A stretch of 44,857 bases of DNA, taken from Deltaproteobacteria bacterium (lineage in GTDB: Bacteria; Myxococcota_A; Polyangia; Nannocystales; Nannocystaceae). Positions 5,168 to 26,010 of the stretch are shown piece after piece. The DNA lies in NCBI GenBank assembly GCA_947492135.1, contig CANLQR010000004.1, positions 1 to 44,857 on the forward strand, in the 5' to 3' direction. The notes beneath the pieces are model-generated. The model made no database searches. It saw nothing but the letters and a program-made list of their open reading frames with translations, and had not been told where the DNA came from. Every line of letters begins with the position of its first letter. Position 1 is the first letter of the stretch. Position numbers and translations under genes: made by a program.

Positions 5168-5758
5168 ATGCGCCGCGCTGAACCCTTCTACGATGCACGG
5201 CTCGCCGACGCGCTCGGATTCGCCGCGACCGCGTTTGCCCACGTCGAGCGCAAGGGCAGCGGTGTGCCCTACCTCAGCCACCTGCTGGCGGTGACGACCT
5301 TGGTGATGGAGTACGGCGGTACCGCCGATCAGTGCATCGCCGCGGTGCTTCACGACTACCTCGAGGATATCGCCGGCAGCTCGGTCGACGAGCTCGCCGA
5401 GCGTTTCGGAGCCGACGTCGCGGCCATCGTGCTCGCGCTGTCGGACTCGACCCAGGACGAGCTCGACGCCACCGGCGGCAAGCCACCTTGGAAGGATCGC
5501 AAGCTGCGCTACCTCGCGCACCTGCGTGACGCGCCGCCGCAGGTGAAGCTCGTCAGCACTGCCGACAAGCTCCACAACGCCTCCTCGATCGTCCGTGATC
5601 GAGAGACCCTGGGCGAAGCGATCTTCGAGCGGTTCACCGCGAGCAAGCCCGAGACGCTGTGGTACTACGCCGCGGTGGTCGACGCGCTTGGCGACGGGTG
5701 GAATCATGCGTTGCTCGACCAGCTGCGCGCGGTGGTGCGGACCCTGCACAGGGGCTGA
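5168..5758 (+). CDS. HD-domain phosphohydrolase ((p)ppGpp-hydrolase-like)
   Basis: PYLSHLLAV...H...LHDYLEDI supplies the H...HD motif. Size (196 aa) and layout are typical of small-alarmone-hydrolase-like HD proteins. Confidence 0.7.
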   Translation: MRRAEPFYDARLADALGFAATAFAHVERKGSGVPYLSHLLAVTTLVMEYGGTADQCIAAVLHDYLEDIAGSSVDELAERFGADVAAIVLALSDSTQDELDATGGKPPWKDRKLRYLAHLRDAPPQVKLVSTADKLHNASSIVRDRETLGEAIFERFTASKPETLWYYAAVVDALGDGWNHALLDQLRAVVRTLHRG

Positions 5759-5786
5759 GGACGGTCCCGCAACCTGCGGTCGAGGA

Positions 5787-6779
5787 ATGGCGACGTTTGC
5801 GACGCCTCGCCGTGGTGATACGTTCCGCCTCGCGATGCTCGTCCTGCCCAAGGCCTCCTGGTGGCGATACGTCCGCCGCTACTCGGGCAGCGAGCTACCG
5901 CGGACCAAATATCGGATCGCCGGCGTGCTCCTGGTCGGCGTGCTCGTCACGTTCCTCGAGGAGCATCACGACTGGCATCCGAACCTCACGTCGCTGCCGT
6001 TCACGCTGGTCGGCGTCGCGCTCGGCATCTTCCTCGGCTTTCGCAACAACGCCAGCTACGATCGCTGGTGGGAGGGCCGCAAGATCTGGGGCAGCGCCAC
6101 CAACGGCGCCCGATCACTGACCCGGCAGATCCTCACGCTGGTGGGGCCGCAGCCTGGCGCGATCGAGGTCGACACCGCGGCCGTCGCCCGGCTCCACACC
6201 GAGCTCGTCCACCGCGTCATCGCCTGGGCCCACGCGTTGCGGCTGTCGCTGCGTGCCGAGGATGGCGCCACCACGCTGGCCCGGTTGCTTCCCGCCGAAG
6301 AGGTCGAACGCCTGACCACCCAGAGCAATCCGGCCTACGCGATCACGCAGGGGACCGCGGATCGACTTCGAGACGCCTATGCACGGGGCTGGGTCCATCC
6401 CATGCACCTGGTCGTACTCGAGCAGTCGCTGACCTCGCTGACCGACGTCCAAGGCGCCGCCGAGCGCATCCAGAACACGCCGATCCCGTTCTCGTACACC
6501 ACACTCATCCACCGCATCACGGCGGTGTACTGCTACGCCCTGCCCTTCGGCGTGGTCGACACGGTCGGGCTATTCACCCCGTTCGTGGTCGGCATCGTCG
6601 CGTATGCGTTCTTCGGCCTCGACGTGATCGGCGAGGAGATCGACATGCCCTTCGGCAAGGACCCCAACGACCTGCCGCTGAACGCGATCACCCGGACGAT
6701 CGAGATCAACCTCCGGCAGCGCCTCGGGGAGACCGACCTGCCGCCGATGCTCGTACCGATCGACGACGTCCTGGACTGA
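5787..6779 (+). CDS. Bestrophin/UPF0187 (YneE-like) family anion channel
   Basis: The LGFRNNASYDRWWEGRKIWG signature closely matches the bacterial bestrophin motif (LGFRNNxSYDRYWEARKLWG). TM helices precede it. The start is chosen at the ATG at 5787 with a GAGGA 5 nt upstream, just after the HD gene stop; the longer track ORF (5595) overlaps the HD gene. Confidence 0.75.
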   Translation: MATFATPRRGDTFRLAMLVLPKASWWRYVRRYSGSELPRTKYRIAGVLLVGVLVTFLEEHHDWHPNLTSLPFTLVGVALGIFLGFRNNASYDRWWEGRKIWGSATNGARSLTRQILTLVGPQPGAIEVDTAAVARLHTELVHRVIAWAHALRLSLRAEDGATTLARLLPAEEVERLTTQSNPAYAITQGTADRLRDAYARGWVHPMHLVVLEQSLTSLTDVQGAAERIQNTPIPFSYTTLIHRITAVYCYALPFGVVDTVGLFTPFVVGIVAYAFFGLDVIGEEIDMPFGKDPNDLPLNAITRTIEINLRQRLGETDLPPMLVPIDDVLD

Positions 6780-6835: not shown

Positions 6836-7663
6836 TTACCGATAGGCCGGCGCCACGAAGGTGTACTCGACCCGCGCATCGAGCGGCGCAAGGCGTTTGC
6901 CCCGCGCGAGCATCGGTGGAACCCGCCCCTCGTAGCGCAGGATCTTCCGGGTCTTGGTGTCGAACACCAAGCGCATCGGTGGGACCGAAGCCCGCACCAA
7001 CGCGCTGCTCGCCGCAAACGAGAACACCGTCGTCCCGGCCTGGGCCTCGACCTCGCGCAGCTCGCACGCGTACGTGCGCGCGTCGTCGATCACGGCGAAC
7101 CGCAGCTCGAACACCTCGCCGCGGGACAGCGCATCCCAATGTTCGAGCGCCCAACCGAACAACGTCGGACCGACGACCACGGGCACGTCGACCCGCTCGA
7201 TCCGCGTGCGGGTCCGGCCGGCACGCGTGCGCTCGAAGGCGAGGTGGTGTTCGTCGCGCATGCGGGCGCTGCCCACGACTTGATTCTGGCGATTGACCTG
7301 GGTGAGGTCGACGAAGTCGTAGTTCGGTGCGTGGGTCGCGGTCAGCGAGAGCAGCGCGGCGTCATCGGGCCCGCGCGTCAAGTGGGTGGACACGCGACGC
7401 GAACCCTCGGCGCGGACGCGGCGTTGGTAGGTGAACACCGGCTCCTGCTGCGCCGACCGCTGCGGGTCGTAGACCGCCCCGTCGTAGATGAGTTCGCCGG
7501 CGGCGTCGGGTGTGGTCGCGAGCTGATCGAGTGATGCGAATCGAGCGCCCTGGGCCCCCGGCAGCCCGCGACAACCGACCGCGAGCGTGACTGAAACGGC
7601 CACAGCCGCGTAACGAGCGAGCGTGGCAGCGAGAGCCAAAACCGACTGAGTGGGGAACGTCAT
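6836..7663 (-). CDS. Hypothetical lipoprotein
   Basis: The internal ATG at 7663 gives MTFPTQSVLALAATLARYAAVAVSVTLAVGC (signal plus lipobox Cys). The upstream part of the track ORF (to 7996) is Arg-rich and non-protein-like. No recognisable domain. Confidence 0.5.
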   Translation of the reverse strand: MTFPTQSVLALAATLARYAAVAVSVTLAVGCRGLPGAQGARFASLDQLATTPDAAGELIYDGAVYDPQRSAQQEPVFTYQRRVRAEGSRRVSTHLTRGPDDAALLSLTATHAPNYDFVDLTQVNRQNQVVGSARMRDEHHLAFERTRAGRTRTRIERVDVPVVVGPTLFGWALEHWDALSRGEVFELRFAVIDDARTYACELREVEAQAGTTVFSFAASSALVRASVPPMRLVFDTKTRKILRYEGRVPPMLARGKRLAPLDARVEYTFVAPAYR

Positions 7664-7666
7664 GAT

Positions 7667-7743
7667 GGGTCCAGCATGGCGCTCGACCCTGCGACGGGCA
7701 TTGGCGCAGCCCGCCAGAGATGCTGTCCGATCGCGACAATGCG
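7667..7743. repeat. Conserved ~78-nt non-coding element, copy A (second copy at 20081-20158)
   Basis: About 90% identical to 20081-20158 (gggtccagcatggcgctYgaccctgcgacgggcattggcgcagcc...gatgcNgtccgatcgcgacaatgcg). The copies differ by a 1-nt indel, so it is not a conserved ORF. Internal dyads gggtc/gaccc and gcattg/caatgc are present. Confidence 0.55.
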
Positions 7744-7967
7744 CGGCCACGGGCGAGCTGCGCGTGTCGCACCACGACTTCTTGGCGCGGCGGGCCGCTC
7801 CAGAAAACCTCCGCCGACGGACGACACGGCTGGTCTTGTCCCACGTGCGCCCTCGTCGGAAGCCCCCCGCGGACTCGCACCGAGAAATAGTTTGAACCGC
7901 CGGGGCCTGGCGTTCACGTCGGGGTCGAGTGGCCGAGACGTGTGCCCGGCCCGGAGAACCAAACACC

Positions 7968-9092
7968 ATGCGTACCTCGATTTCGTGCCTTTCCACCGCC
8001 CTTGTCCTCGCCTGCCCGCTCGCCGTCGGTTGCTACGGTCCCGCGGACGCCGGCAACGACCACGACGCTGGCGCCTCGACCGGTGAGGCACAGGAGTCCG
8101 AGGGCAGCGACGACGCCAGCTCGACGACCCCCGAGCCCGGCGACGACGACGGCAACGAGGACAGCAGCGACGACGGTGCCGACGCCGGCGAGGATCCCGA
8201 CACCACCGCGGGCGACACCGGCGAGGTGGTCGACACCACGCCGCCGACTCTGGTGAGCAGCGTGCCCGCCGACGGCGACGTGGGGATCTACGCCGACACC
8301 CAGATCCGGCTGGTCTTCTCCGAGCCCATGGACAAGGCCAGCGTTCAGGTCGCCTACCAGAGCGCCGATCTGCCCGAGTTTTTCGTGACCATGGCCTGGA
8401 ACGACGACGGCGACGAGCTGGTCATCACGCCCGCCGGCCTGCTCGAGTACGGCGCCGCATCGTCGCCCGCCGAGGTCATCCCACGGGTCTACACCCTGAC
8501 GATCACCACCGCCGCGACCGACGTCGCCGGCAACGAGCTCGAGCAGGACGCGACCGTCGCGTTCACCACCCTCAAGGCCATCGTCCACGACCTGCCGATC
8601 GTCGCCGCTCTCACCGGCGCGGTGCGCCAGGACGGCGACGCCTACCCCGGGTTCATCATGGCCGGCGACGCGGCCCTCCCGGCCAACGCGCGGTGGAAGG
8701 GCTTCGTGTCGTTCGGCCTCGACGATCTACCCGACGACATCGCGATGTTCGTCGCCGCCGAGCTGGCCTACGAACAGCTCGACGTAATCGGCAGCCCCTA
8801 TGACGATCTCGGATCGCTCGAGATCCACGACGTGGTCTTCGGCGCGACCGATCTGACGGCGTTCGAGGCCGCGTCGACGGGTCCGGTGGGCATCAGCGAC
8901 GAGGTTGGCCTGGGCCAGGACACCTTCGACGTGACCCCGGCGCTGCAGGCCGATCTCGCGGCGGGTGCCGACCTCACCCAGTTCCGCTTCGAGTTCCCGG
9001 TCGCGTCCGACTTCGACGACGCCTACGACTACGCATTGTTCAGCGCGACGGATCCGGGCCCAGTGCTGCGCGTCGGCTACCTCATCCCGTGA
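7968..9092 (+). CDS. Acidic secreted lipoprotein with an SbsA-type Ig-like (Big_5) domain
   Basis: ATG at 7968 is preceded by GGAGAA. Lipoprotein signal MRTSISCLSTALVLACPLAVGC, then an Asp/Glu/Ser-rich linker, then TTPPTLVSSVPADGDVGIYADTQIRLVFSEPMDKASV, which is typical of SbsA_Ig. The 3' end overlaps the convergent kinase gene by 16 nt. Confidence 0.6.
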   Translation: MRTSISCLSTALVLACPLAVGCYGPADAGNDHDAGASTGEAQESEGSDDASSTTPEPGDDDGNEDSSDDGADAGEDPDTTAGDTGEVVDTTPPTLVSSVPADGDVGIYADTQIRLVFSEPMDKASVQVAYQSADLPEFFVTMAWNDDGDELVITPAGLLEYGAASSPAEVIPRVYTLTITTAATDVAGNELEQDATVAFTTLKAIVHDLPIVAALTGAVRQDGDAYPGFIMAGDAALPANARWKGFVSFGLDDLPDDIAMFVAAELAYEQLDVIGSPYDDLGSLEIHDVVFGATDLTAFEAASTGPVGISDEVGLGQDTFDVTPALQADLAAGADLTQFRFEFPVASDFDDAYDYALFSATDPGPVLRVGYLIP

Positions 9093-11872
9093 GCCGGTGT
9101 CCCCAGCGCCCGCCGCATCGACAGCTCGATCAACCGCAACAGGTTGGTCGAGCGGTCGGCGTTGGTGGTGCCGGCTCCGGCATAGATCCGTTCGGCCTCG
9201 ACCGCCCGGCCGATCGCCGCGTCGAGCTCGCCGTCGAGCCCATCGAGCCGCGACAGCTGGGCCAGAGCCAGGGCGGTATCCGGCGAGCTGGGGCTGTTGG
9301 CCCGCAGCGCCAGCACGCGATCGAGCTCGGTGCGGGCGTCGACGAACCGACCGAGATCGACCAGGACCAGCGCGCGGGCCTGGTGAGTGTGGGCGGTCTG
9401 AATGTGATCGGCGCCGATCGTGGCGACTTCGATGTCGGCGACCTGGTCGAGCCGCGCCAGCGCCTCGTCGAAGCGGCCCTGGCGGCGGCGCACCTCGGCG
9501 AGGTTCATGAGCACGCGCGCGGTCCGGGCGTCCTTGCGCGGCCCGGCGATCGCGAGCGCGCGCTCGAAGGCGAGCTCGGCCGCGGCAAGGTCGTCGCGCG
9601 CGTTCTCGATGGCGCCGAGGTTCAACCAGCCCGACACCACCCACGCGTGTTCGGGCCCATAGGTCGCGACGAACACCTCGATGGCACGGCGGGTGTACGC
9701 AGCGGCGGCCTCGAGGTCGGCGCCCGTCTGCGCCGCGAGGCCCAGGTTCATCAGCGCTCCGCCGACCCGGGGGTGCAGCGCGCCCAGTCGCGCCACCGCC
9801 TCGTCGTGCAGCGGGAGCAGCATGGCCCGCGCCTCGTGGTGACGACCCAGGCCGAGCAGCGTCGACGCGGTGGTCATGCGCGCGTGCCAAAGCTGGGATG
9901 CATCGCCATCGGCGGCGGACTCGAGCACCGCGATCGCCCGTCGGCACGCGACCAACGCGTCCTCGGGGCGGCCCTGGGCATCGTGGAGCTGACACGCGGC
10001 GCGGGCGATCCCGGCCTCGAGCTCGGGGTGCGATCCGTCGACCCGCGCGAGCGAGGCCTCGGCATGGCGGAGCCACTGCGCGGCGGCCTCGAGCTCCGCG
10101 GTGCGCGTGCGCTCGGTCGCGGCACCGTAGGCGCGGCGCGTCGCACGACGTGGCTGATCCAGAGCCATGGCAATCGCGTGGGAGTGCTCGATCGCTTCGG
10201 CGCCCGAGCCCGGCGACTGCTCGCCGCGGGCCAGGCCCAGCACGAACAGCGCGTCGCCTCGCGTCGCCTCGCCACCGTTGGCCTCGTCGAGGCTCGCGGT
10301 CGCGATCGCGATCGCGGTGGCATAGTCGCCGGCGAGGTGGGCGGCGCGTGCCGTCGCGATCCGACTGTCGATCGTGCCGTCGATGGCGGCGTCCTCGGTG
10401 CCTGCCCGCGACTCGGGTGACTCGCACTCGCGCGGGTCGGGCAGGCCATCGACGGCCGCCAGGGCGCGCTCGGCCAGCTTGGGCGACGCCTCGCCGAGGC
10501 GAGCGACCAGTGCGTCGGCGGTCGCGAGGCCCTCGCGCAGGCAGCCGACCCGCCGATCCAGCAAGGTCTCGTCCGCGACCCCATCATGCCACGTCGCTCG
10601 ACACGCGCCGACGTGGCGATCGATCCACCGCTCGCCCCACGCATCGACGGCCGCGCCGACGTTGGCCGCGGTGGTCTCGGCGTAGGGCACACCGGTGGCG
10701 CGTAGCGCCCGGCCGATCGCATCACGACGATCGGCGGTCCACACCGCGTCGAGCTCGGCGCGCGCCACCGCCGGATCGCAGCGTGGTCCGGTGTCCTCGC
10801 GCGCGTTGTAGACCCAGCCGAGCACACCGAGCCCACCGACGACACCCAGGCCCACCACCGCCAGCCGTCGACGTCGTCGCGACGCCCGCCCGATCGCAGC
10901 CAACAGCGCGGTCATGGACTCGAAGCGCATCGCCGGGTCGGCCGCCAGCGCGCGCTGCAGCAGCGGCGCGAACCAGCCCGGCACACCGCCGGTGACCGGT
11001 GGCACGGGCGGTCCGCGATCGATCGCGTCCAACAGCTCGATCGACGTCCGACCGGCAAACGGCGGCACGCCGAACACGACCTCCCACGCGGTCACCGCGA
11101 ATCCGAACTGATCGCTGCTGGCGTCGGCCCGCCCGCCCCGGTGCTGCTCGGGGGCCATGTAGCGCGGCGTGCCCATGATCGCGCCGGTCCGCGTCAGCGA
11201 CGACGACAGCGCCTCGTCGCGATCGTGTGCTCGCACGTCCGTCTCCGACGCGTCCGTGCGATCGTCGCGGGCCAGGCCGAAGTCTGCGACCTTCGCGGTG
11301 CCATCGTCCCCGACCAGGACGTTGGCGGGCTTGAAGTCGCGGTGGATCAGCCGGCGCGCGTGGGCGGTGCTCAGCCCGGCGCCGGCACCGACCAGCCACC
11401 GCAGCGCCGCCTCGAACCGATCGCGAGTGCCCGGCGAATGTTCGTGCGCCCACCGCTGCAGGGTCGTGCCGCGCACCAGCTCCATGGCGATGAAGTCGCG
11501 GCCGTCGATCGTACCGACCTCGAACACCTTCACCAGCCCGGGGTCGTCGACCGCGGCCATCGCCCGCGCCTCGCGGCGCAGCCGCTCGGTCGCGCCCCCC
11601 GATCCCAACGGCCGCAGGATCTTCACTGCGACCGCACGGGCCAGCGTGGTGTCGAGCGCCTCGTAGACCTCGCCGAACGCCCCCGCGCCGAGCCGTCGCA
11701 CGATTTGATAGCGCCCGAAGGATTCCGGCGGCGACTCGGTGCCGAACAACGACGCGAGCACGCCGCCGAGCCCATGACGGCCACCCAGGGTCAGCGGCGT
11801 GTCGGGGACGCGGGCCACGGCGGACGACGCGGACGCCTCGGACTCGTCGTCGTCACTGGACACGGGCGGCAC
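9077..11872 (-). CDS. Ser/Thr protein kinase with a TM segment and a C-terminal TPR-repeat region
   Basis: N-terminal kinase domain (GRYQIVRRLGAGAFGEVYEA...VAVKIL; HRDFKPANVLV; DFGLAR; GTPRYMAPE), a TM helix (VVGLGVVGGLGVLGW) and a long TPR/Ala-rich tail. Divergent (40 bp) from an ECF sigma-factor gene. Confidence 0.85.
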   Translation of the reverse strand: MPPVSSDDDESEASASSAVARVPDTPLTLGGRHGLGGVLASLFGTESPPESFGRYQIVRRLGAGAFGEVYEALDTTLARAVAVKILRPLGSGGATERLRREARAMAAVDDPGLVKVFEVGTIDGRDFIAMELVRGTTLQRWAHEHSPGTRDRFEAALRWLVGAGAGLSTAHARRLIHRDFKPANVLVGDDGTAKVADFGLARDDRTDASETDVRAHDRDEALSSSLTRTGAIMGTPRYMAPEQHRGGRADASSDQFGFAVTAWEVVFGVPPFAGRTSIELLDAIDRGPPVPPVTGGVPGWFAPLLQRALAADPAMRFESMTALLAAIGRASRRRRRLAVVGLGVVGGLGVLGWVYNAREDTGPRCDPAVARAELDAVWTADRRDAIGRALRATGVPYAETTAANVGAAVDAWGERWIDRHVGACRATWHDGVADETLLDRRVGCLREGLATADALVARLGEASPKLAERALAAVDGLPDPRECESPESRAGTEDAAIDGTIDSRIATARAAHLAGDYATAIAIATASLDEANGGEATRGDALFVLGLARGEQSPGSGAEAIEHSHAIAMALDQPRRATRRAYGAATERTRTAELEAAAQWLRHAEASLARVDGSHPELEAGIARAACQLHDAQGRPEDALVACRRAIAVLESAADGDASQLWHARMTTASTLLGLGRHHEARAMLLPLHDEAVARLGALHPRVGGALMNLGLAAQTGADLEAAAAYTRRAIEVFVATYGPEHAWVVSGWLNLGAIENARDDLAAAELAFERALAIAGPRKDARTARVLMNLAEVRRRQGRFDEALARLDQVADIEVATIGADHIQTAHTHQARALVLVDLGRFVDARTELDRVLALRANSPSSPDTALALAQLSRLDGLDGELDAAIGRAVEAERIYAGAGTTNADRSTNLLRLIELSMRRALGTPAHGMR

Positions 11873-11912
11873 GAGTCTACCCGAGGGCGGGTCGTGCTAG
11901 CGTGGCAGCGGC

Positions 11913-12509
11913 GTGGACGAGGATTTCGACCTGCTCGAGCGCTGGCGCGGCGGTGAGCGCAGCGCCGGCGAAGTATTGGTGACCCGCCACTTTGGCGCAG
12001 TGCGGCGATTCTTCGTCAACAAGACCTCGCGTGATCCCGACGACCTGACCCAGACCACGTTTCTGCGCTGCGTCGAGCAGCGCGAGGCGTTCGCCGGCCG
12101 CGGCAGCGTTCGCGCGTTCCTGTTCGGCGTCGCCCGCAACGTGCTGTACGAGCACTACCGCAAGGTCTATCGCGCCGACGTCGAGCCAGCGCAGACCTCG
12201 GTCGCCGATCTCGATCCCACGCCGAGCCAGATGGTCTCGGACATACAGTGGCACGGTCAGCTATTCGACACCCTGCGCGCGCTACCGGCCGAGATGCAGG
12301 TGCTGCTCGAGCTCCACTACTGGGAGGGCCTGTCGACCGCCGAGCTCGGCGTGGTGTTCGACGTGGCCCCCGGCACGATCAAGAGCCGGCTGTTCACCGC
12401 GCGCGGCGAGCTGCGCGAGCGAGCGCGCCGCCGCGGCTTCGATCTGGGCCTGGGCAAGGACGCGACGATCCCCGGCTGGGCCCGCAACCTCGCCGATCTG
12501 CGCGGCTGA
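11913..12509 (+). CDS. ECF-type RNA polymerase sigma-70 factor
   Basis: Sigma-70 region 2 (DLTQTTFLRCVEQREAFAGRGSVRAFLFGVARNVLYEHYR) and region 4 (LPAEMQVLLELHYWEGLSTAELGVVFDVAPGTIKSRLFTARGELR). No anti-sigma gene is adjacent; the partner appears to be the divergent STK. Confidence 0.85.
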   Translation: MDEDFDLLERWRGGERSAGEVLVTRHFGAVRRFFVNKTSRDPDDLTQTTFLRCVEQREAFAGRGSVRAFLFGVARNVLYEHYRKVYRADVEPAQTSVADLDPTPSQMVSDIQWHGQLFDTLRALPAEMQVLLELHYWEGLSTAELGVVFDVAPGTIKSRLFTARGELRERARRRGFDLGLGKDATIPGWARNLADLRG

Positions 12510-12523
12510 ACCTGCACTCTTCG

Positions 12524-12607
12524 ATGACGAGCAAGCCCGTCGCGTTCCTGTGCGCCGATCTCGGCGTGACCAAGACCCACTCGCGCCCAACCGCGACTCG
12601 TCGCTGA
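12524..12607 (+). pseudogene. Possible relic of a transposase/integrase-core (rve) C-terminus
   Basis: The 27-codon remnant MTSKPVAFLCADLGVTKTHSRP... resembles, from memory, the conserved C-terminal stretch of some IS integrase-core transposases (...LGVTKTHSRPHVSNDNP...). It diverges after HSRP and no upstream body is present. Weak. Confidence 0.2.
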
Positions 12608-12707
12608 TCCCACATCTCGTCAGGCGCTCTGCACGTTGTCGGCGCGGCACCTCGCGCAGCCCGCCCAGGCCTTGACTCGATACGGCCGGGCGTCCTATCG
12701 GTAGGAA

Positions 12708-13640
12708 GTGCCACAGCCCGTCTACGATTTGTTCTTCGGTCCGGCCAATGACGAGCTCTGCGATCATCCGCGCGGACTGGAGTACGCGAGCGCTCGTAGG
12801 TTCGTGCGGCCCGACGCCACGCGCGCGGGGCATGCGGGCGGACATGCGCCAGCGATTGCTGTCGACGCATGGCCGCGCTCGCCGAGCACGGGATACCCGA
12901 TGGCGCACCTGCTGACGCTCGAGCTGCCGTTGGAGTACCGACGCAAAGGGCCCGATCTCGTGGGGCTCGCGCTCTTCCAAGCCGACGACCATGTGGCTAC
13001 GCCCACGCCAGGTGCGAGGGAAGCCTTGATGACCGGCGTCGCCTCGCACACAAGTGCCCTGCTTGCGTCGTTGGTGCGGGCGCACGGCGCCAGGCACCCG
13101 CAGAGGGTCGATCTCGTCGACTTGATCGGCGGTCATTTCGCGGTCCTCTGGTTGCGAGACGAAGAGCTGCGCGGCCCTCGGACCGCCCCCCCTGCGGACG
13201 ACCGCGACCCCACCTCGCCCGTCGAAACTGGTCAGAACATGAACGCGTGGGACCACACCAAGCCGGAGCTCGCGGTGTGGCTTGCCGAACGTTCGTTCGA
13301 CCCCAACGCCGGGAAAGCGCCAACCGAAGGCTCGATCTACGACGACGACGACGACAACGACGACGACGACGACGATGCAGACGGGCCGCCTCCACCCTAC
13401 GAGCCTTCCGATGCGTACGTGGATGTGGTGCTGACGCGCGTCGAGAAGCTCAAGGCCTTTTACGAGGAACACCACGGACGAAGTCATCTCGGCGGCACGT
13501 GCTTGCCGGTGCAGCAGCTGCCCGAAGGCCTCACGCCGTGGTTCTTGGAGCTCGAGAACGATATTGGCGGCGCCAACTTCGGTGGTGGCAATCTGCAGTA
13601 CGATCTCGAGAGGGATATCCTCGACTGGGCATGCGGTTGA
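12708..13640 (+). CDS. Hypothetical protein with a DUF1963 (YwqG)-like C-terminal region and a poly-Asp tract
   Basis: 310 aa. The C-terminus HLGGTCLPVQQLPEGLTPWFLELENDIGGANFGGGNLQYDLERD resembles the DUF1963 pattern (LGG-P-W-Q ... FLLQLDSD ... GDxG). An internal DDDDDNDDDDDDAD run is present. No signal peptide. Confidence 0.5.
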   Translation: MPQPVYDLFFGPANDELCDHPRGLEYASARRFVRPDATRAGHAGGHAPAIAVDAWPRSPSTGYPMAHLLTLELPLEYRRKGPDLVGLALFQADDHVATPTPGAREALMTGVASHTSALLASLVRAHGARHPQRVDLVDLIGGHFAVLWLRDEELRGPRTAPPADDRDPTSPVETGQNMNAWDHTKPELAVWLAERSFDPNAGKAPTEGSIYDDDDDNDDDDDDADGPPPPYEPSDAYVDVVLTRVEKLKAFYEEHHGRSHLGGTCLPVQQLPEGLTPWFLELENDIGGANFGGGNLQYDLERDILDWACG

Positions 13641-13711
13641 GGTGCTGCTCGAGCTCCACGACTGGGAGGCCGCGCCTCTGCCGGGCGCGCCCATGCAGGT
13701 GAGCCCCGGCG

Positions 13712-14713
13712 CTAGGGCACGCAGCAGACGGTGCGCGGTGCCGTGGCTTGCGCCGGGGTCATGCACCCCAGCCGCGTGTCGCCTGCCATTGCGGAGGCGA
13801 AGGCTCCGTTTTGCTGGCAGCCACGGCCCGCGACGACCTCGCCGGGGCTGGCCGGGGTCTCGCACATCGTGTCCGTGAAGAGCCAGACACGCGCAGCGCC
13901 ACACCATTCGCTCATCGAGCACGAGCACGCGGCGCACTCGACGTGCTGCGCCTCGGGCAGCGGCACGGTGCCCAAGGGGCACATCGCGGCGGGCTCGTCC
14001 GCCATCACACACACGCGCTGCATCGCATTGCACTCGACAGCGTCGGGCAGCACGCAGACGGTCCAGGGCGGGAGTTCGTCGGCGACCGGTACACCTTGGC
14101 CGCTGCATTCGCCGCCGGGTGCGAGAAACGAGATGTCCTGATACAGCGCCGGATTCGGGTCGGCGAAGTCGGACACGCACTGCGCTGCCAGGAGATCGGT
14201 CTCGGTCACCGACACGCCGCACCCGCCCGGCGACGAGAGCAGGCTGAGCGAGCACTGCTGGGCGTGCGGTCCACAGTCGCACCCGCATTCGACCGTCTCG
14301 GTGGTCGGCAGCAGCACCTCGACCTGGGACACTCCGTCCGGGCACTCGGGCGGGGGCTCGCCAGCGATGCCGATGCGAACGAGCATCCAGTCCGACCAAC
14401 CGTCTCCGGGCTCGATCGCGTCGGTCGAGCAGTCCGGTGCGCCCGAGGTGCTCGAGCCGGCGCCCTCGGTCGACATGGCCCCGGTGCTGGACTCGGTCGA
14501 GTCGGCGAGCGTCGTGCCCGGGCTGCTCGTGCCGACGCTGCTCGTGCCGACGCTGCTCGTGCCGACGCTGCTCGTGTCGACCATCTCGGTGGCCGACGAC
14601 GTGGGTGCGTCGATCGACGGCGCCTCGCCGAAGCAACCAGACAGCCCGAACAGGAACGTCGCGATGCCCAACGGCCGATTCACCACGAGTTGCAGGCCGA
14701 GTCGCAAGCGCAT
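13712..14713 (-). CDS. Cys-rich secreted lipoprotein (myxobacterial Cys-rich repeat type) with a (TSSVG)3 tandem repeat
   Basis: The internal ATG at 14713 gives the signal MRLRLGLQLVVNRPLGIATFLFGLSGC. A 15-nt x3 tandem repeat encodes TSSVGTSSVGTSSVG. The C-terminal half has more than 25 Cys in CxxC/ECP-type spacing. Confidence 0.65.
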   Translation of the reverse strand: MRLRLGLQLVVNRPLGIATFLFGLSGCFGEAPSIDAPTSSATEMVDTSSVGTSSVGTSSVGTSSPGTTLADSTESSTGAMSTEGAGSSTSGAPDCSTDAIEPGDGWSDWMLVRIGIAGEPPPECPDGVSQVEVLLPTTETVECGCDCGPHAQQCSLSLLSSPGGCGVSVTETDLLAAQCVSDFADPNPALYQDISFLAPGGECSGQGVPVADELPPWTVCVLPDAVECNAMQRVCVMADEPAAMCPLGTVPLPEAQHVECAACSCSMSEWCGAARVWLFTDTMCETPASPGEVVAGRGCQQNGAFASAMAGDTRLGCMTPAQATAPRTVCCVP

Positions 14714-14912
14714 GATCTCGAGCCTACCACTGCGGACGCGCGCACGCGCGCACGCGCGCACGTGCGTACGGCGTGCCCGGCCTCGTCACGGCAGTCGTTG
14801 TCCCCCCGGCGGGCCAGCACCAGGCACCGCCGAGACGCCACCAGCCGCCATGTCGCAGCGATTTTCCGCCTTCGGCAATCGAAAGGCTCGCTCGCGCATC
14901 GACCCTCGCGGA

Positions 14913-16624
14913 ATGCGCCACCTTCTCGCCAGCTTTGCCGGATTGACCCTGATGTTCTCGGTTTCCGGCGCTCGCGCCCAAGACGCCCGCCTTCGGGTGA
15001 TCTTGAGTGGGGCCGACAACCCGACGCCGCTGGTGGAGTACGCCACCGCACGCGTTGGTCCCTACGTCGCCTTGTCGAGAACCGGGAGGATCACAGCAAC
15101 CGTGAACCTGTCCGAGGGTGCACCGGACACCTCGGCGCTGGTCGTGGCGAGACTCGACACGACCACCGACAACTTCGACTTCTCGCTCATCGCTCGCGAC
15201 GGTCAGGTCATCCACCCTGGCCTCGGCCTCACGCTCGACCGCATCGTCTCCGACTTTCGCGACGTTGGCTTCGACGGCGAGTGGGCGCTCTTTCAGAGCG
15301 TCGCGCCAAACGGGCTCCGCGTGCTCTACGGCGGCGCCGGCACCATGGAACTATTCTCGACGGGGGGCGAGCAGTGTCCGGGTTTGCCACCGGGCATCCT
15401 CCAGGGCGGCGGCGATGGCGACGTGAGAGTCAACATCGCCGGCGACACCGGGTTTGCCGACTGCGGCGGATTCAACATCAACGAAACCATCGTGTCGTTC
15501 ACCAATCCGCCGCAAGGTGCCACCGGCGGGTTCCTGGGAGGCTCCGGTCCTTTTGTCCGCGCCCTCGATGACGACGGCGGGCTCTGGGTGGCCGGAAGCA
15601 CCTCGTGTGCCGCTTGCGAGGGCGGCGTCATGCATGGTTTGTGGCGAATCGATCAAGACGGTCCGGTGCTCGCGTTCGACTCGAGCGCGTATTCACAGAT
15701 CGCCCACATCGTCCGCACCACCTTTCCCTCGCTCAACGGCAACGGCGAGTTCGCTGCCCTCGCCTTCGTCGGCCCCGCCGGCGCGAGCGGGCCCGCCAAT
15801 ACCGTCATCGCGGTCGCGGCCGGCGAGGTCACGGTCGTTGCCCGCGTGGGTGATGAGGCGGCTGACCGCCCTGGCCGCCCCATCACCTCGGTGTACGTTC
15901 ATCCCGGCGGTGCAAGCGGTGCCTACCTCGACGACGGCGGCGGCGTGGTCTTTCTCGCCGAGGTCGACAACCCGCCGGGCCGGGCGCTGCTTCGCTCATC
16001 GGGGGGGACGATCGAAACCGTCGTGATGACCGGCGATGTGGTCGATGAGCTCTTCGCGGGCTCGACGGTGACCGCGCTCGATCCGCAGCAGGTGGCCGTG
16101 AGCCGAACGGGTCACCTGGCCATCGCCGGCTCGGTCCAGCGACAGGGCTCATTGACGAGCTCGGCGGTGCTGTTCCTCGACGCCATCTCTCGGTCACCCA
16201 ATCCGAAACCGGATCGTCGATGCTCTCGATCGCGAATTCAGGGCCCGGGACCGCGGTCGGCGTCGTGGTCGAGCTGTCGGACTACACGGGTGGCGGGGAG
16301 GCAGCGGAGCGAATCTTCGTGGGATCCCTCGAGGTCGGTGAAGTTGCTCAGGTCGAGACGCTACTGGCCGACGATGGCGACTCGTTCGAGATCACAGCGC
16401 GAGTGCACTCGGAGATCGTCGACAACAACTTGACCAACAACACTGCCGTGTTGATCCGCGATGAGGAGTATCAACAGGGCTGCGGTTGCGTGGCGCTCCC
16501 TGCCCGCAAGGCTCCGGCAGCCGGCCTCGTCGCGATGGCCGTCGTTTTGGCAGCGGCGGGCCGACGGCGGCGCCGGCGGGCCCCGATCAAAAATTCACCT
16601 GACACTGGCCGGTCGTCGCACTGA
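14913..16624 (+). CDS. Secreted protein with a C-terminal CARDB-like domain and MYXO-CTERM-type sorting signal; an apparent frameshift near 16215-16222
   Basis: Frame 0 (14913-~16214) encodes the signal MRHLLASFAGLTLMFSVSGARAQD and a protein-like body ending ...SPNPKPD. Frame 2 (16223-16624) encodes LSIANSGPGTAVGVVVEL...DNNLTNNTAV (CARDB-like) then GCGCVALP-hydrophobic-RRRRRR (MYXO-CTERM-like). Each frame is non-protein-like beyond the junction. This is either a true frameshift/pseudogene or a 1-nt sequencing error. Confidence 0.5.
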
Positions 16625-17321
16625 CGCACATGTGCAAGTTCGGGCAGCACACGTGACCGCACTGGACCTGGCCATCGGGGCAGCTGGGCTGTCGCGGAGT
16701 ATTGTTGTCGCAACCTCCGCCGGCCTTGCACTGCACGTCGCAGCAAGTGTAGGAGGCGTTGGGGCTCTCGCTGGTCTTGCAGGTGGCCTGGGAGGACGTG
16801 CAGACGTTGTGGCAGCTGCCGTCGGAGCCGCAGCTCTGGCCCCACTCGCACGTCACGCCCTTGCAGGGGTCCGCCGGGGGGGCTGCGCCGCCATCGTCTC
16901 CACCTCCGTCGTTGTCTCCGCCGCCATTGCCCGCAGCTCCGCCGTCGCCACAGTCACCGCCGCCGTCGTCACCGCGAGCCGAGCCCTCGTCACCTCCAGG
17001 TGCCTCACCACCATCCGAAGGGTCACGCTCCTGGCCACCGCCATCCGCGGGGGGCGAGCCCTCGTCACCTCCACCCGCACCTTCATCGCCACGCGGCGAG
17101 CCACCGTCACCTTGCGCACCACCGTCGCCATCCGCCGCCGGTGAGTCCTCCCCTCCACCCGCACCGTCGTCGCCATCGCCGTCGCCATCGAAGAGCATCG
17201 CCAGGTTGGCACCGATCTCCGAACGCTGCGAAGCACCATCGTGCCGCGCACCGCCGCAGGCCAGCCCGAACGCCGCCCAGCCCGACAAAGACGAGATCAA
17301 AAGGATGTTCAGACTTCGCAC
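16587..17321 (-). CDS. Gly/Asp-rich lipoprotein with a C-terminal Cys-rich domain
   Basis: A GTG at 17321 lies 6 nt downstream of a perfect AAGGAGG and gives MRSLNILLISSLSGWAAFGLAC (lipobox). A long G/D/E/A low-complexity region is followed by a Cys-rich module (CKGVTCEWGQSCGSDGSCHNVC...). The 3' end overlaps the convergent gene by 38 nt. Confidence 0.6.
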   Translation of the reverse strand: MRSLNILLISSLSGWAAFGLACGGARHDGASQRSEIGANLAMLFDGDGDGDDGAGGGEDSPAADGDGGAQGDGGSPRGDEGAGGGDEGSPPADGGGQERDPSDGGEAPGGDEGSARGDDGGGDCGDGGAAGNGGGDNDGGGDDGGAAPPADPCKGVTCEWGQSCGSDGSCHNVCTSSQATCKTSESPNASYTCCDVQCKAGGGCDNNTPRQPSCPDGQVQCGHVCCPNLHMCVSATTGQCQVNF

Positions 17322-17527
17322 AGCAAGCCTCCTTGGCCGGGGATTACCGGCTTCTCGAACTGCGTGCCGCCGCGCCGCGATCGGTTGCTGGTGTAAAGCC
17401 ATGACGGCCGAGGTTTGCTGCACGCAGACACGAGCGCTAGCGGGCGGACCGTCGAGCTGACGCGCTGGTCACCGACGGCAGCGCGTCGTCGCTCGTTCGC
17501 TCCTCGGCCGCCGAGTACCTGACCTTC

Positions 17528-18075
17528 GTGGCGGCGAGCGGCACGGGCGGCGTCGAGGCGGTGTACGCCGACGAGAACGTGTGGCTCAGCCAGAAGATGA
17601 TGGCGCAGCTCTACGACGTGGAGGTCCCGACCATCAACTACCACCTGAAGAAGGTGTTCGAGGACAGCGAGCTGGAGGAGGACGCAGTTATCCGAAATTT
17701 TCGGATAACTGCCGCCGACGCCAAGACCTACGACACCAAGCACTACAACCTCTCGGCCATCATCGCCGTCGGCTACAAGGTCAACTCCGAGCGCGCGGTG
17801 CAGTTCCGCAAGTGGGCTACGCGCGTCGTCGAGGAGTTCACCATCAAGGGCTTCGCGATGGACGACGATCGCCTCCAGCGCGGCGGCTCCATCCTCAGCG
17901 ACCGGTACTTCGAAGAGCAGCTCCAGCGCGTCCGCGAGATCCGGCTGTCGGAGCGCAAGTTCTACCAGAAGATCACCGACATCTACGCCAGCTCGGTCGA
18001 CTACGACGTGACGGCGCAGGCCACCAAGCGCTTCTTCGCCACGGTGCAGAACAAGCTGCACTGGCTGCCCGCCGC
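17528..18075 (+). pseudogene. Virulence-RhuM-family protein gene, 3'-truncated
   Basis: Strong match to the RhuM family core (VWLSQKMMAQLYDV..TINYHLKKVF; VIRNFRITAADAKTYDTKHYNLSAIIAVGYKVNSERAVQFRKWATRVVEEF; YFEEQLQRVREIRLSERKFYQKITDIYA; FFATVQNKLHW). After about residue 180 the reading becomes junk and runs into the convergent LysR gene. Contains the 21-nt perfect palindrome ttatccgaaaTtttcggataa (~17687-17707). Confidence 0.6.
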
Positions 18076-18084
18076 CTTCGGGCC

Positions 18085-18969
18085 TCAGGCGGTCAGCGCA
18101 CGGCCGAAAACCCCGGCGATGCGGTCGCAGACCGCACGCAGTCCCGAGCGATCACGGGCGCTCGCGTGGGTTACGAGCCACACCGGCCGGCGCGGCAGAT
18201 CGTCGAGCAACAGCACCGGCTCGAGGCCGGACTCGCGCGCGCCCCAAGGCGTCGTGAGTGCGATCAGACCATAGCCGGCGACTGCCGCAGCCACGAGCGC
18301 CGCCATGCTGCTCGAGCGGAACACGACGCGAAGATCGTCGCGCGCCGCCAACCACTTCGCCTCCGGCATCGCGGCCAGCTCACCACTTTGGAGCACGACA
18401 TCGTGCCCACGAAGTCCTTTGACGTTCCGCGGTGTCCCACGGGCGCGCAGATAGCTCGGCGCGGCGAACAGACTCAAGGACATGCGCGCCACGCAACGCA
18501 CGCGCAGATCGGCCCCGCGGATCGTGGACATGCGCACCGCAATGTCGGCCTCACCACGAGCGAGATCCACCGGTCGATTTCCTCCTGCGATCTCGATGAC
18601 TAGCTCCGGATATTGGGCCCGAACCTCCAGCAAGCCCTCCGCCACGAGAAACGCCGCCAGCGCCTCGGTCGTCGCAACCCGCACCGTGCCGCTGACCGCG
18701 CCCTCGTCGGCCCTCGCCGCGTGCGCGAGTGCAATCGCCTGGCGCTCCATCGCTTCGGCGTGGGGTCGTAGTCGCTCGGCGGTCGCGGTTGGCCGCAGGC
18801 CCTCGCGGGTGCGCACGAAGAGGCGCGCGCCGGTGGAGTTCTCGAGCGCCGCCACCCGTCGACCAATCGTCGACCGATCGACCCCGAGCCGCTTGCCGGC
18901 CTCGCCCAGGGTTCGCGAGTTCAGCAGCATCAGCAGTACCCGGACGTCATCCCATTCCATCATGCGCAT
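18085..18969 (-). CDS. LysR family transcriptional regulator
   Basis: N-terminal HTH (MEWDDVRVLLMLLNSRTLGEAGKRLGVDRSTIGRRVAALE) plus a LysR substrate-binding domain. Divergent from an oxidoreductase gene, the classic LysR arrangement. Confidence 0.85.
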   Translation of the reverse strand: MRMMEWDDVRVLLMLLNSRTLGEAGKRLGVDRSTIGRRVAALENSTGARLFVRTREGLRPTATAERLRPHAEAMERQAIALAHAARADEGAVSGTVRVATTEALAAFLVAEGLLEVRAQYPELVIEIAGGNRPVDLARGEADIAVRMSTIRGADLRVRCVARMSLSLFAAPSYLRARGTPRNVKGLRGHDVVLQSGELAAMPEAKWLAARDDLRVVFRSSSMAALVAAAVAGYGLIALTTPWGARESGLEPVLLLDDLPRRPVWLVTHASARDRSGLRAVCDRIAGVFGRALTA

Positions 18970-19016
18970 TATTGCACATCTGGTGGGCACTTTTGCTCAT
19001 TTACGAATCGCCGGGC

Positions 19017-20075
19017 ATGGCCACGCTATCGGCGATGACCACGATGACCAATACCTATCGCGCGGTGCAACTCCGGGGCAAGGGTGGCCTCGACCAGCTC
19101 GTCGAGGTGAAACTGCCCCTGGTCGATCCCGCAGCGGGCGAGATCCGCATCCGAGTGACGGCGACGGGCGTCGGTTTCACCGACATCACCATGCGCACCG
19201 GATACTACCCGTATCGACCCGCGTTCCCGTTTGTCCCCGGCTACGAGGTCGTGGGCGAAGTCGACGCGATCGGAGCCGGCGTCACTGGGGTCGTCCTGGG
19301 TCAGCGCGTGTGTGCGCTGACCGTGCACGGCGGCTATGCCGAGCGGCTTACACGCGAGGCCGAGCACTTCGTGGCGGTGCCTGACGGCGTCGACGATGCA
19401 GACACCGTCGCGCTCGTTCTCAACTACGTCACCGCCTATCAGATGATCCATCGCAGCGCTGCGATGAAGCCAGGACAGACGGCGCTGGTGACCGGGGCCA
19501 ACGGAGGTGTCGGAATGGCGCTGGTCGAGCTGCTAGGGCTTGCCAAGGTGCGGGTGATTGCGGCGTGCAGCGAGCGACACTTCGCACACATGCAAGCCCT
19601 CGGTGCTGTGCCAATCCCCTCTCGTGGTCGCCCGCTCGACGTGCTCGTGCACGAACTCGAGGCCGACGGTGTCGACGCGGCGTTCGACGGCCTCGGTGGG
19701 CCAGCCACGCGCGAATGTGTCCGAGCCACCCGCAAGGGCGGAACCGTCGTCGCCTACGGCTTCATGGCTGCACGCGTCGCCGGGCGACCGAGCACTTGGG
19801 CGACGCTGCGTGGATTTGCCTCGCTGGCGGTCGGAGGCCGGCTTGCGGGTCGCCGGCCGGTGTTCTACGGGATCACGCAGATCTACCGCAAGGACCCCAC
19901 CTCGCTCCGCGAGGACCTGCCGAAGTTGCTCGAGCTGCTACGCACCGGACAAGTCCATCCGAAGATCGCCGCGCGACTGCCATTGCTCGCAGGTGCTCGC
20001 GCTCAGGCCGTCCTCGAGCGGGGGGCAGTGATCGGGAAGATCGTGCTCGTGCGCGACGGCGCGGACGCGTCCTGA
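19017..20075 (+). CDS. Zinc-binding alcohol dehydrogenase / quinone oxidoreductase (MDR superfamily)
   Basis: YRAVQL...GEIRIRVTATGVGFTDI..PFVPGYEVVGEV; Rossmann motif ALVTGANGGVGMALVEL; C-terminal GKIVL. The start is taken at the ATG at 19017; ATGs at 19035 and 19044 are also possible. Confidence 0.85.
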   Translation: MATLSAMTTMTNTYRAVQLRGKGGLDQLVEVKLPLVDPAAGEIRIRVTATGVGFTDITMRTGYYPYRPAFPFVPGYEVVGEVDAIGAGVTGVVLGQRVCALTVHGGYAERLTREAEHFVAVPDGVDDADTVALVLNYVTAYQMIHRSAAMKPGQTALVTGANGGVGMALVELLGLAKVRVIAACSERHFAHMQALGAVPIPSRGRPLDVLVHELEADGVDAAFDGLGGPATRECVRATRKGGTVVAYGFMAARVAGRPSTWATLRGFASLAVGGRLAGRRPVFYGITQIYRKDPTSLREDLPKLLELLRTGQVHPKIAARLPLLAGARAQAVLERGAVIGKIVLVRDGADAS

Positions 20076-20080
20076 TCCAA

Positions 20081-20158
20081 GGGTCCAGCATGGCGCTTGA
20101 CCCTGCGACGGGCATTGGCGCAGCCTGCCACAAGATGCGGTCCGATCGCGACAATGCG
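20081..20158. repeat. Conserved ~78-nt non-coding element, copy B (see 7667-7743)
   Basis: Lies 5 nt after the QOR stop and about 30 nt before the AraC start. It is in the same orientation as copy A, so its orientation relative to the flanking genes is reversed. Confidence 0.55.
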
Positions 20159-20187
20159 ACCCTCGTGGTCATCCTGGCGGTGACGCG

Positions 20188-21219
20188 ATGAGCCCCGATA
20201 CGATCTCGGTCACCAACGTGCGGCCGGCCTTCGAAGCGTCGCTGGCGTTTGGTGCCACGCCCGCAGAAATCGAGGCCCGCACCGGGATGACCCGGACCCT
20301 GCTCGAGTCCGATGGCGCGACCGTGAGCGGCGACGCGACCTACGAGCACATGGAGCTGATGTTCGAAAAGCCAGACTTTGGCCGGTTTCTGGTCGCTGCG
20401 GCGGGGTTGCACACGCTGTCGAGCCTGGGCGTGGTGGGTTTGGCGTGCAAGACCGTCGCGACCGTGGGTGAGGCCCTCGCGTGTCATCAGCGCTTTGGCC
20501 ACCTGACCAACCGCACCGCGAGCTACTCGGCGACCGTCGTCGGCGGGCACCTGGAATTCACCGAGCGCCGCACCGGCCCGCCGCGGCTGGGAAATCTGTT
20601 GGTCTCCGACTACGCGATGCTCATCGCTGCGCACGTGATCCGCCAGAGCGGGCGAGATCGTCCCCACGTGTTGGCGATGTTGAGCCGGCGCAAGCACATC
20701 GCCGACGACGAACGCCGCTGCTACGAAGCGTTCGTCGGCAGCGAACTGCGCACCGGCGCTGCCCATGCGGCGCTGTGGTTCGAGCCGGGGTTGCTCGGGT
20801 GTCCGGTGTCATCGGCCGATCCAGAGCTCGCGCTGTATTTCACGGCGATGCTCGCCAAGGCGGCGGGCTTTGGCGCAAGCGAGGCCACGCTGATGCGACA
20901 GGTCCGCATCGCGATCCGCGACGCGCTCGTCCACGGAACGGCCGATGCAGCCAAGATCGCCAAGTCGCTCGGCTTGGGTCAGCGCACGCTGCAGCGGCGC
21001 CTCGGTGAGCTCGGCACCGGCTTCACAGAGGTTCTGGACTCGACGCGAAGGACCCTCGCCGAAGGCTATCTGCGCGATCCGAAGCTCGGCCTCGCAGAGA
21101 TCGCATACCTGCTGGGATACGACGAACAGACCTCGTTCTTCCGCGCGTTTCGTCGGTGGCACGAGGTGACCCCAGGCGAGTTTCGTCGGCTCCACGGCGG
21201 GGCCGATGCCGACGGGTGA
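20188..21219 (+). CDS. AraC family transcriptional regulator
   Basis: N-terminal AraC-binding-like region. C-terminal HTH_18 (QRTLQRRLGELGTGFTEVLDSTRRTLAEGYL...EIAYLLGYDEQTSFFRAFRRWHEVTPGEFR). Confidence 0.85.
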   Translation: MSPDTISVTNVRPAFEASLAFGATPAEIEARTGMTRTLLESDGATVSGDATYEHMELMFEKPDFGRFLVAAAGLHTLSSLGVVGLACKTVATVGEALACHQRFGHLTNRTASYSATVVGGHLEFTERRTGPPRLGNLLVSDYAMLIAAHVIRQSGRDRPHVLAMLSRRKHIADDERRCYEAFVGSELRTGAAHAALWFEPGLLGCPVSSADPELALYFTAMLAKAAGFGASEATLMRQVRIAIRDALVHGTADAAKIAKSLGLGQRTLQRRLGELGTGFTEVLDSTRRTLAEGYLRDPKLGLAEIAYLLGYDEQTSFFRAFRRWHEVTPGEFRRLHGGADADG

Positions 21220-21221
21220 CG

Positions 21222-21331
21222 GCGCGCCGACCTGCGCGCCGACGTGCGCGCCGACCTGCGCGCCGACCTGCGCGCCGACGTGCGCGCCGACCTGCGCGCC
21301 GACGTGCGCGCCGACCTGCGCGCCGACGCCG
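21222..21331. repeat. 12-bp tandem repeat (gcgcgccgacSt) x about 9
   Basis: Read directly. Eight full units alternate ...acct/...acgt, followed by a partial ninth. It sits in the 200-bp gap between araC and the 2H-phosphoesterase gene. Confidence 0.85.
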
Positions 21332-25840: not shown

Positions 25841-26010
25841 CCCTGAACGCGAGCGCGCCGCCGCCGAGGTCGCGAGCGGCGGGTTGGCGCAGGGTAGCCG
25901 AAGGGATAGCCAGCCCTACGTGCCCGCGATGCGGCACGACGCGCTCGGCGAGGCGCAGCACCGCGCCCTCGCCCAACCCTGCGGATAGACGCCGCTACCC
26001 GCCACGATCC

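Follow-up and report, generated by a model that had tools for sequence, protein, structure and literature searches.

A probable control region of a divergent lipoprotein/araC-family gene pair, duplicated around strain-variable DNA

The DNA analysed here, which we call the window, is a whole contig of 44,857 nt. A short sequence occurs in it twice, at 7667–7743 (copy 1, 77 nt) and at 20081–20158 (copy 2, 78 nt), as direct repeats on the same strand that agree at 73 of 78 positions (BLAST 93.6% over 78 columns, E = 4e-26). The differences amount to four substitutions and one 1-nt indel, and the similarity ends abruptly at both edges. The initial annotation had described an element of about 78 nt, present twice in the same orientation and about 90% identical, and this description holds. 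A profile of the element recovers copy 1 with an nhmmer E-value of 5e-20 and copy 2 with one of 6e-20, and the pair forms family D16 in a repeat scan of the window. Searched for at up to 3 mismatches, blocks of 19 and 29 nt taken from the element have exactly two occurrences each in the window (0.08 and 0.00 expected from shuffles), and no third copy was found in the 44.9-kb window by block search, profile or repeat scan. Copy 2 is also identical in a near-identical metagenome contig from ENA. Both copies carry the dyad GGGTC-N13-GACCC and a longer dyad, GCATTGGCGC-N25/26-GCGACAATGC, with one G/A mismatch; the two dyads had been proposed earlier and do exist, but the spacer of the longer one is 25–26 nt rather than ~30. 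The differences between the copies had been said to concentrate in the presumed loop: four of the five fall between the arms of the long dyad and the fifth in the loop of the GGGTC dyad.

Copy 1 precedes a minus-strand lipoprotein gene at 6836–7663, with 3 nt between it and the ATG (7663), while copy 2 lies 5 nt past the stop of a quinone-oxidoreductase-like gene and 29 nt ahead of the ATG (20188) of an araC-family gene at 20188–21219 on the plus strand, from which it is separated by a short leader (20159–20187, plus strand). Once gene starts supported by orthologs are applied, both copies are intergenic, as had been claimed. The placement of copy 2 between the oxidoreductase stop and the araC start was likewise correct. 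Copy 1 does stand in the leader of a lipoprotein gene, but the relevant gene is the minus-strand one at 6836–7663 and not the plus-strand Big_5 lipoprotein gene (7965–9092), which begins ~220 nt downstream of copy 1. A tandem array of the 12-nt unit GCGCGCCGACCT (8.8 copies, 93% matches; 21222–21327) begins 3 nt past the araC stop (21219), before a conserved 188-aa gene at 21418–21984.

The lipoprotein encoded at 6836–7663 has 275 aa and the lipobox LAVGC, and falls into no family of Pfam or NCBIfam. Its homologs number at least 190, most of them unnamed, the named ones being Myxococcota MAGs. Its AlphaFold model (pLDDT 94, pTM 0.85) adopts a beta-barrel-like fold with weak similarity to Brucella DUF1849 (6ntr, TM 0.44–0.49) and to LolA/nitrobindin-type barrels, and the modelled fold hints that the protein may bind a hydrophobic ligand. 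The regulator encoded at 20188–21219 matches Pfam Arabinose_bd and HTH_18, and in NCBIfam is QhpR/GliR-like at scores under the curated cut-offs. It has 298 homologs at E <= 1e-20, and the named relatives in the homolog lists are Myxococcota, Polyangiales, Sandaracinaceae and Nannocystaceae MAGs. Presumably this regulator binds the element and controls the expression of its own gene.

Two further features of the contig lie away from these genes. A direct repeat of ~400 nt (40552–40973 and 44473–44857) consists of 233 nt at 98% and 145 nt at 91% identity; its copies are 3.9 kb apart and the second runs to the very end of the contig. Either a duplicated gene segment or a repeat at the assembly end might account for it. 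ARAGORN calls an 83-nt tRNA-Ala(GGC) at 24448–24530 on the plus strand, inside and antisense to a Ser/Thr kinase gene (~24350–25915, minus strand) and overlapping a 24-nt tandem repeat; this call is probably a false positive.

For comparison, we retrieved the DNA around eleven AraC homologs. In every ortholog lineage outside the window's own (AraC 58–77% identical), a gene on the opposite strand begins ~80–160 nt upstream of araC, and in nine independent lineages the element profile finds exactly one match per locus, always in the gap before araC. E-values range from 1e-12 to 1e-18 in six of these lineages (L088–L091, L092–L097, L098/L099, L100, L101/L102 and L103) and from 3e-6 to 6e-13 in the three most distant ones (L104–L106; AraC 58–66%); across loci with AraC 63–97% identical they lie between 1e-12 and 1e-20. 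No other match below E = 0.1 was returned from the window and ~200 kb of related loci. In seven of the nine lineages the divergent gene codes for a lipoprotein orthologous to that of the window, 53–58% identical beside the araC genes of L088, L092/L094, L098, L101 and L103, 47% in L105 and 39% in L104. At least ten further pairs of AraC and lipoprotein homologs could be matched by the size of the longest source contig, several of these contigs being shorter than 4.5 kb, which is indirect evidence that the linkage extends to many more lineages. At one ortholog locus (P0009; L088/L089), a Phage_integrase-family gene (5712–6504) and a DUF6036 gene lie 2.6–4.2 kb past the lipoprotein gene, on its araC-distal side; mobile DNA thus gathers near the pair in another lineage too.

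In all single-copy loci the element lies between the regulator gene and a divergently transcribed gene, while each window copy is next to just one of the two. Given that there is one profile match per locus, and always in the divergent gap, we conclude from this comparison of sequences that the element is the conserved core of the control region that a divergent lipoprotein/araC pair shares in its intergenic gap, and that the lipoprotein gene at 6836–7663 is, on the same comparative grounds, the ancestral divergent partner of araC. It had been suggested that the element might be a binding site for a global regulator. A regulator binding site is a reasonable reading, but "global" does not fit an element confined to a single locus in the window and the ~200 kb searched.

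The multiple alignment has the appearance of a phylogenetic footprint, in which conserved blocks are split by variable spacers. The blocks are, in order, CAGCTTG, GCTTGACC, (G/C)CATTGGCGCA, [C/G]TGACA and, after 17–18 nt, TGTCCGATCGCGACAA, which is nearly invariant across the alignment. In copy 1 the left blocks read CAGCATG (7672–7678) and GCTCGACC (7681–7688), corresponding to CAGCTTG and GCTTGACC of the orthologs. They are followed by the block GGCATTGGCGCA (7697–7708), which includes ATTGGC, or GCCAAT on the minus strand; by CCGCCA (7711–7716, plus strand), a degenerate rightward −35-like hexamer at the position of the orthologs' [C/G]TGACA; and by the most conserved block, TGTCCGATCGCGACAAT (7724–7740), which contains the palindrome TGTC-N7-GACA and ends in GACAAT. 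Copy 2 has CAGCATG at 20086–20092, GCTTGACC at 20095–20102, GGCATTGGCGCA at 20111–20122, the −35-like CTGCCA at 20125–20130 (plus strand), 19 nt before GACAAT, and GGTCCGATCGCGACAAT at 20139–20155, with GACAAT at 20150–20155 and a G in place of the otherwise invariant T of TGTC.

The spacing of these blocks suggests promoters. In all eight of the scorable single-copy orthologs, NTGNCA is separated from GACAAN by 17 or 18 nt, which would amount to sigma-70-type promoter geometry directed towards araC, with the GACAAT that ends TGTCCGATCGCGACAAT as its candidate −10 box. On the minus strand, inspection revealed CGGACA 17–18 nt before GCCAAT, and this pair may be a leftward sigma-70-like promoter of the lipoprotein gene; the GCCAAT of copy 1 would then be either the candidate −10 box of that promoter or a left operator half-site. 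Read in this way, the long dyad of the initial annotation would be formed by two outward-facing −10-like boxes, G(A/C)CAAT, and its "loop" would hold two −35-like boxes. The match to consensus is imperfect. A consensus scanner reported no sigma-70-like promoter in either window copy; the −35-like hexamers of the window (CCGCCA and CTGCCA) are degenerate, with spacers of 18 and 19 nt; position 6 of the putative −10 box GACAAN varies among orthologs; and GCCAAT does not have the canonical A at position 2. A sigma-54 promoter was considered by inspection and rejected, as TGGCGC is present and GC is not found at the −12 position.

Overlapping the same blocks is an imperfect 17-bp inverted repeat, ATTG(G/T)CGC...G(A/C)CA, with 10–11 of 17 positions matching and a gap of 6–8 nt. 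The repeat is not significant on its own, and its size would fit the DNA-binding domain of an AraC-family protein, with two helix-turn-helix motifs, on each half. We infer that the conserved blocks represent two interleaved divergent sigma-70-like promoters, an imperfect inverted operator, or both.

The element had been judged to be non-coding, and the comparison with orthologs agrees. The 1-nt indel between the copies shifts the frame of the MALDPATGIGAA mini-ORF, and its ATG is missing from all single-copy orthologs, which have CAGCTTG where the window has CAGCATG; the latter thus creates a spurious ATG. A gene caller had given a 33-aa product for this mini-ORF on the ENA contig, and we reject it as a gene given that its frame differs between the copies and its start is missing in the orthologs.

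The suggestion that the element is a small RNA or riboregulator fared less well. Rfam gave no match at gathering thresholds in the whole window, and none at E <= 1 when searched with 301 nt around each copy. Folding z-scores relative to dinucleotide shuffles were +0.11, −0.33, −0.57 and −1.22 for the two copies on both strands, that is, no better than shuffles, which also bears out the remark that the element is unlike a simple REP hairpin. In an alignment (A2) of four copies from the window's lineage with six single-copy orthologs, 71.8% of cells in the two proposed helices are paired, against 68.5% in shuffles. The covariation score of the helices is 0.074, and sliding the 3' partner by +1 or +3 gives 0.079 and 0.144, so that the proposed pairing does not rise above its slid controls. 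Nine of the 15 proposed helix pairs vary solely by breaking, and the only invariant "pairs" are those of the 4-bp DNA palindrome TGTC-N7-GACA. RNAalifold returns hardly any consensus structure (−2.68 kcal/mol; covariation term +0.24). The reading of the element as a structured RNA is not supported. The initial annotation had held that a lack of both further copies and covariation would point to a chance local duplication; covariation is indeed absent, but orthologous copies are present in many genomes, which shows the sequence to be conserved, in the role of a promoter/operator region and not in that of an RNA.

Between the two copies of the window lies an insert of 12.3 kb (7744–20080), which encodes the Big_5 lipoprotein, a Ser/Thr kinase, an ECF sigma factor, four family-less proteins, a truncated RhuM, a LysR regulator and the quinone-oxidoreductase-like protein. 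This DNA is absent from the single-copy orthologs (L088–L103), where the lipoprotein and araC genes are adjacent. It also differs in a sister strain (L085/L086), whose AraC is 97% identical and whose sequence is collinear with the window at ~96% nucleotide identity. Collinearity stops at the right end of copy 1 and resumes at the left end of copy 2, and between them the sister strain has 2.5 kb that is non-homologous to the 12.3 kb of the window. Of the lipoprotein gene, a 38-nt scrap was found in the insert of the sister strain and nothing in that of the window (tblastn E >= 0.03). A simple tandem duplication of the lipoprotein gene together with the intergenic region thus found little support.

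Several observations concern the contents of the inserts. The RhuM-family gene (17528–18274, plus strand), which PADLOC assigns to the candidate defence family PDC-S05, matches approximately the first 180 residues of profiles of ~335 positions, and its 3' end overlaps the LysR gene (18085–18990, minus strand) by ~190 nt; the gene appears to be a truncated remnant within the strain-variable DNA. A 30-nt direct repeat, AGGTGCTGCTCGAGCTCCAC[T/G]ACTGGGAGG (12298–12327 and 13640–13669, 97%), has one copy in the ECF sigma gene (11913–12509) and the other at the end of a gene for a 246-aa family-less protein, and the latter may be a scrap of a second sigma-factor gene in the insert. A scan for terminator-like hairpins followed by a T-run found 2 sites against 0.2 expected; the one at 7811–7826 (minus strand), which lies between copy 1 and the Big_5 gene, would halt leftward transcription out of the insert before copy 1 is reached. 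In the sister strain, a truncated Ser/Thr kinase fragment (L085 7400–7875, minus strand; kinase-domain positions ~68–165) abuts copy 1, and a gene for a family-less, Cys-rich lipoprotein of 532 aa (L085 8093–9691, minus strand) points from copy 2 towards the lipoprotein gene.

The sister strain also has two copies of the element, in a repeat that is longer than that of the window. Its copy 2 keeps the beginning of the lipoprotein gene (GAACGTCATGA, start codon and first codons), and its copy 1 keeps ~20 more nt towards the araC ATG; L085 7304–7401 matches window 20081–20179, such that most of the araC leader is duplicated beside copy 1. The variants specific to copy 1 (GCCCGCCA and GCTGTCC) are common to both strains, as are those specific to copy 2 (GCCTGCCA and GCGGTCC). 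From this it follows that a duplication of ~113 nt predates the split of the strains and that the cargo changed afterwards. Both copies retain all major conserved blocks, and each has lost one feature: the CTG of the −35-like hexamer in copy 1 and the T of TGTC in copy 2.

Our preferred reading, to which we assign a probability of about 80%, is that the element is a locus-specific bidirectional promoter/operator region that was duplicated in this lineage around foreign DNA. Two alternatives concern the nature of the element itself. That it encodes a structured small RNA or cis-acting riboregulator is suggested by the two dyads present in both copies and by its position 29 nt ahead of araC and 3 nt ahead of the lipoprotein ATG, from which parts of it are probably transcribed as 5' leaders. 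Against such an RNA stand the uniformly negative Rfam, folding, covariation and RNAalifold results, the fact that both arms of the long dyad are changed without compensation in L088 (CATTGGCCC and GCGACAAAG), and the single-copy state, in which both promoters occupy ~110 nt and leave no room for a separate RNA gene; we consider it highly improbable. We find it equally hard to credit that the element is a dispersed intergenic repeat, with two copies falling in the window by chance. It does resemble REP/BIME and MITE-like repeats in being short, intergenic, dyad-bearing and present more than once, but relatives down to 58% AraC identity have exactly one copy at the orthologous position, which indicates vertical inheritance of a locus-specific sequence and not mobility. 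No other copy exists in the 44.9-kb window and ~200 kb of related loci, and, in contrast to such repeats, the element has neither a hairpin better than shuffled sequence nor terminal inverted repeats, its ends (GGGTCCAG... and ...ACAATGCG) not being inverted copies of each other. A scan of genome contigs for the dyad pattern GCATTGGCGC-N25-40-GCGACAATGC gave, among the matches listed (at least 80 loci), chance matches only, none of them with the rest of the element. The 20-mer GCGACGGGCATTGGCGCAGC from the core gave 3 chance matches to unrelated sequence in JGI metagenomes, and the plasmid and phage collections held no match to the element.

The remaining alternatives concern the duplication. 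The copies might be attL/attR-like sites of an integrative element or cassette system, with use by a recombinase explaining the strain-variable DNA. As at genomic islands and integration hotspots, direct repeats bracket DNA between two conserved genes that is absent in relatives and differs between ~96%-identical strains; the strain breakpoints coincide with the inner edges of the repeats; and the insert holds a fragment of the RhuM family with its possible role in defence. An empty single-copy site in L088–L103 also agrees with this, as it would with any other insertion. However, Pfam and PADLOC identify no integrase, transposase or other recombinase in either insert, the family-less insert proteins resemble Cys-rich secreted proteins and lipoproteins, and there is no tRNA at the junction and no anomaly of base composition at the insert. 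Furthermore, the repeat is itself a resident, conserved promoter region that was there beforehand, and its copies, 6–15% diverged, are older than the strain split, so that at least one change of cargo took place without new repeats. We regard attachment sites as improbable. A less remote alternative, which we nevertheless think unlikely, accepts a duplicated control region but takes the distal half of each copy to be a neutral leftover, similar in the two copies as a result of young duplication or gene conversion. In its favour, the element differs by 8–10% between strains, against ~4% for the flanking genes, and the four copies show only a marginal tendency for substitutions to fall outside the columns conserved in orthologs (odds ratio 0.32, p = 0.057); the loss of one conserved feature per copy would fit subfunctionalisation or decay. 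On the other hand, the repeat of the window has been trimmed from both sides to the same 78-nt core with the major blocks kept in both copies, and if promoters and operator interleave, which is what their spacing points to, the loss of either half would affect the other. It is thus plausible that the gene-distal half of each copy is still functional.

Under the preferred reading of a duplicated bidirectional promoter/operator region, the ancestral state would have been a single element between a leftward lipoprotein gene and a rightward AraC-family gene. The rightward promoter would consist of [C/G]TGACA, 17–18 nt and GACAAN, and the leftward promoter, on the minus strand, of CGGACA, 17–18 nt and GCCAAT, their blocks overlapping the imperfect inverted repeat described above. 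The AraC-family protein probably binds that repeat and in so doing would control both its own gene and the lipoprotein gene. About 113 nt, beginning in the first codons of the lipoprotein gene and ending ~9 nt short of the araC ATG, would have been duplicated as foreign DNA lodged between the two genes. As the insertion split the divergent pair, each gene would have kept its own copy of the shared control region, and later turnover of the inserted DNA may have trimmed the repeat of the window to 78 nt.

Such an arrangement is familiar from the divergent control region of araC-araBAD in E. coli, where pC and pBAD are accompanied by AraC half-sites. There, and on our reading here too, a gene of the AraC family is divergent from its target, and a short shared region holds both promoters and the sites of the regulator; by analogy, autoregulation would be expected for the regulator of the present locus. 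The two regions have no sequence relationship, and that described here is much shorter, with ~80–160 nt between start codons. Its candidate half-sites form an inverted pair that interleaves with both putative promoters, nothing points to DNA looping, and its regulator differs in having a PF12625-type N-terminal domain and a QhpR/GliR-like character below family cut-offs.

A second point of comparison is the ARG box of Pseudomonas ArgR, an AraC/XylS-family protein, which has the form TGTCGC-N6-G-N-AA in tandem (PMC10963909). The hexamer TGTCGC is found on the minus strand of our most conserved block, as GCGACA within TCGCGACAAT, and in both cases the site, or candidate site, of an AraC-family protein is close to promoters. 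The match is confined to the hexamer, however: the minus strand reads TGTCGC GATCGG ACAG, leaving G-N-AA unmatched, and the arrangement of the element is an inverted repeat whereas the ARG box is tandem. We therefore rejected identity with the ARG box, and the likeness of this short motif is offered as a lead and not as a claim of membership.

The position of the accessory genes raises a further, rather speculative possibility. In the window the Big_5 lipoprotein gene is downstream of copy 1, and in the sister strain it is the 532-aa Cys-rich lipoprotein gene that is downstream of copy 2. Conceivably, the duplicated bidirectional region could act as a landing pad, placing accessory genes by an outward-facing promoter under AraC control. 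We hold this to be improbable; if it were true, the cargo could be exchanged from strain to strain by recombination between or within the copies, and changing sets of secreted proteins would be recruited into one regulon.

Whatever the fate of that idea, what we describe is a modest example of how a probable promoter region came to be duplicated on either side of strain-variable inserted DNA, and a specialist may well find it unsurprising. Its value lies in striking off a candidate small RNA and in assigning the sequence to a widespread pair of genes in the Myxococcota, encoding an AraC-family regulator and a lipoprotein predicted to be beta-barrel-like. The footprint CAGCTTG, GCTTGACC, CATTGGCGCA, [C/G]TGACA and TGTCCGATCGCGACAA may be used to define the operator of this AraC subfamily.
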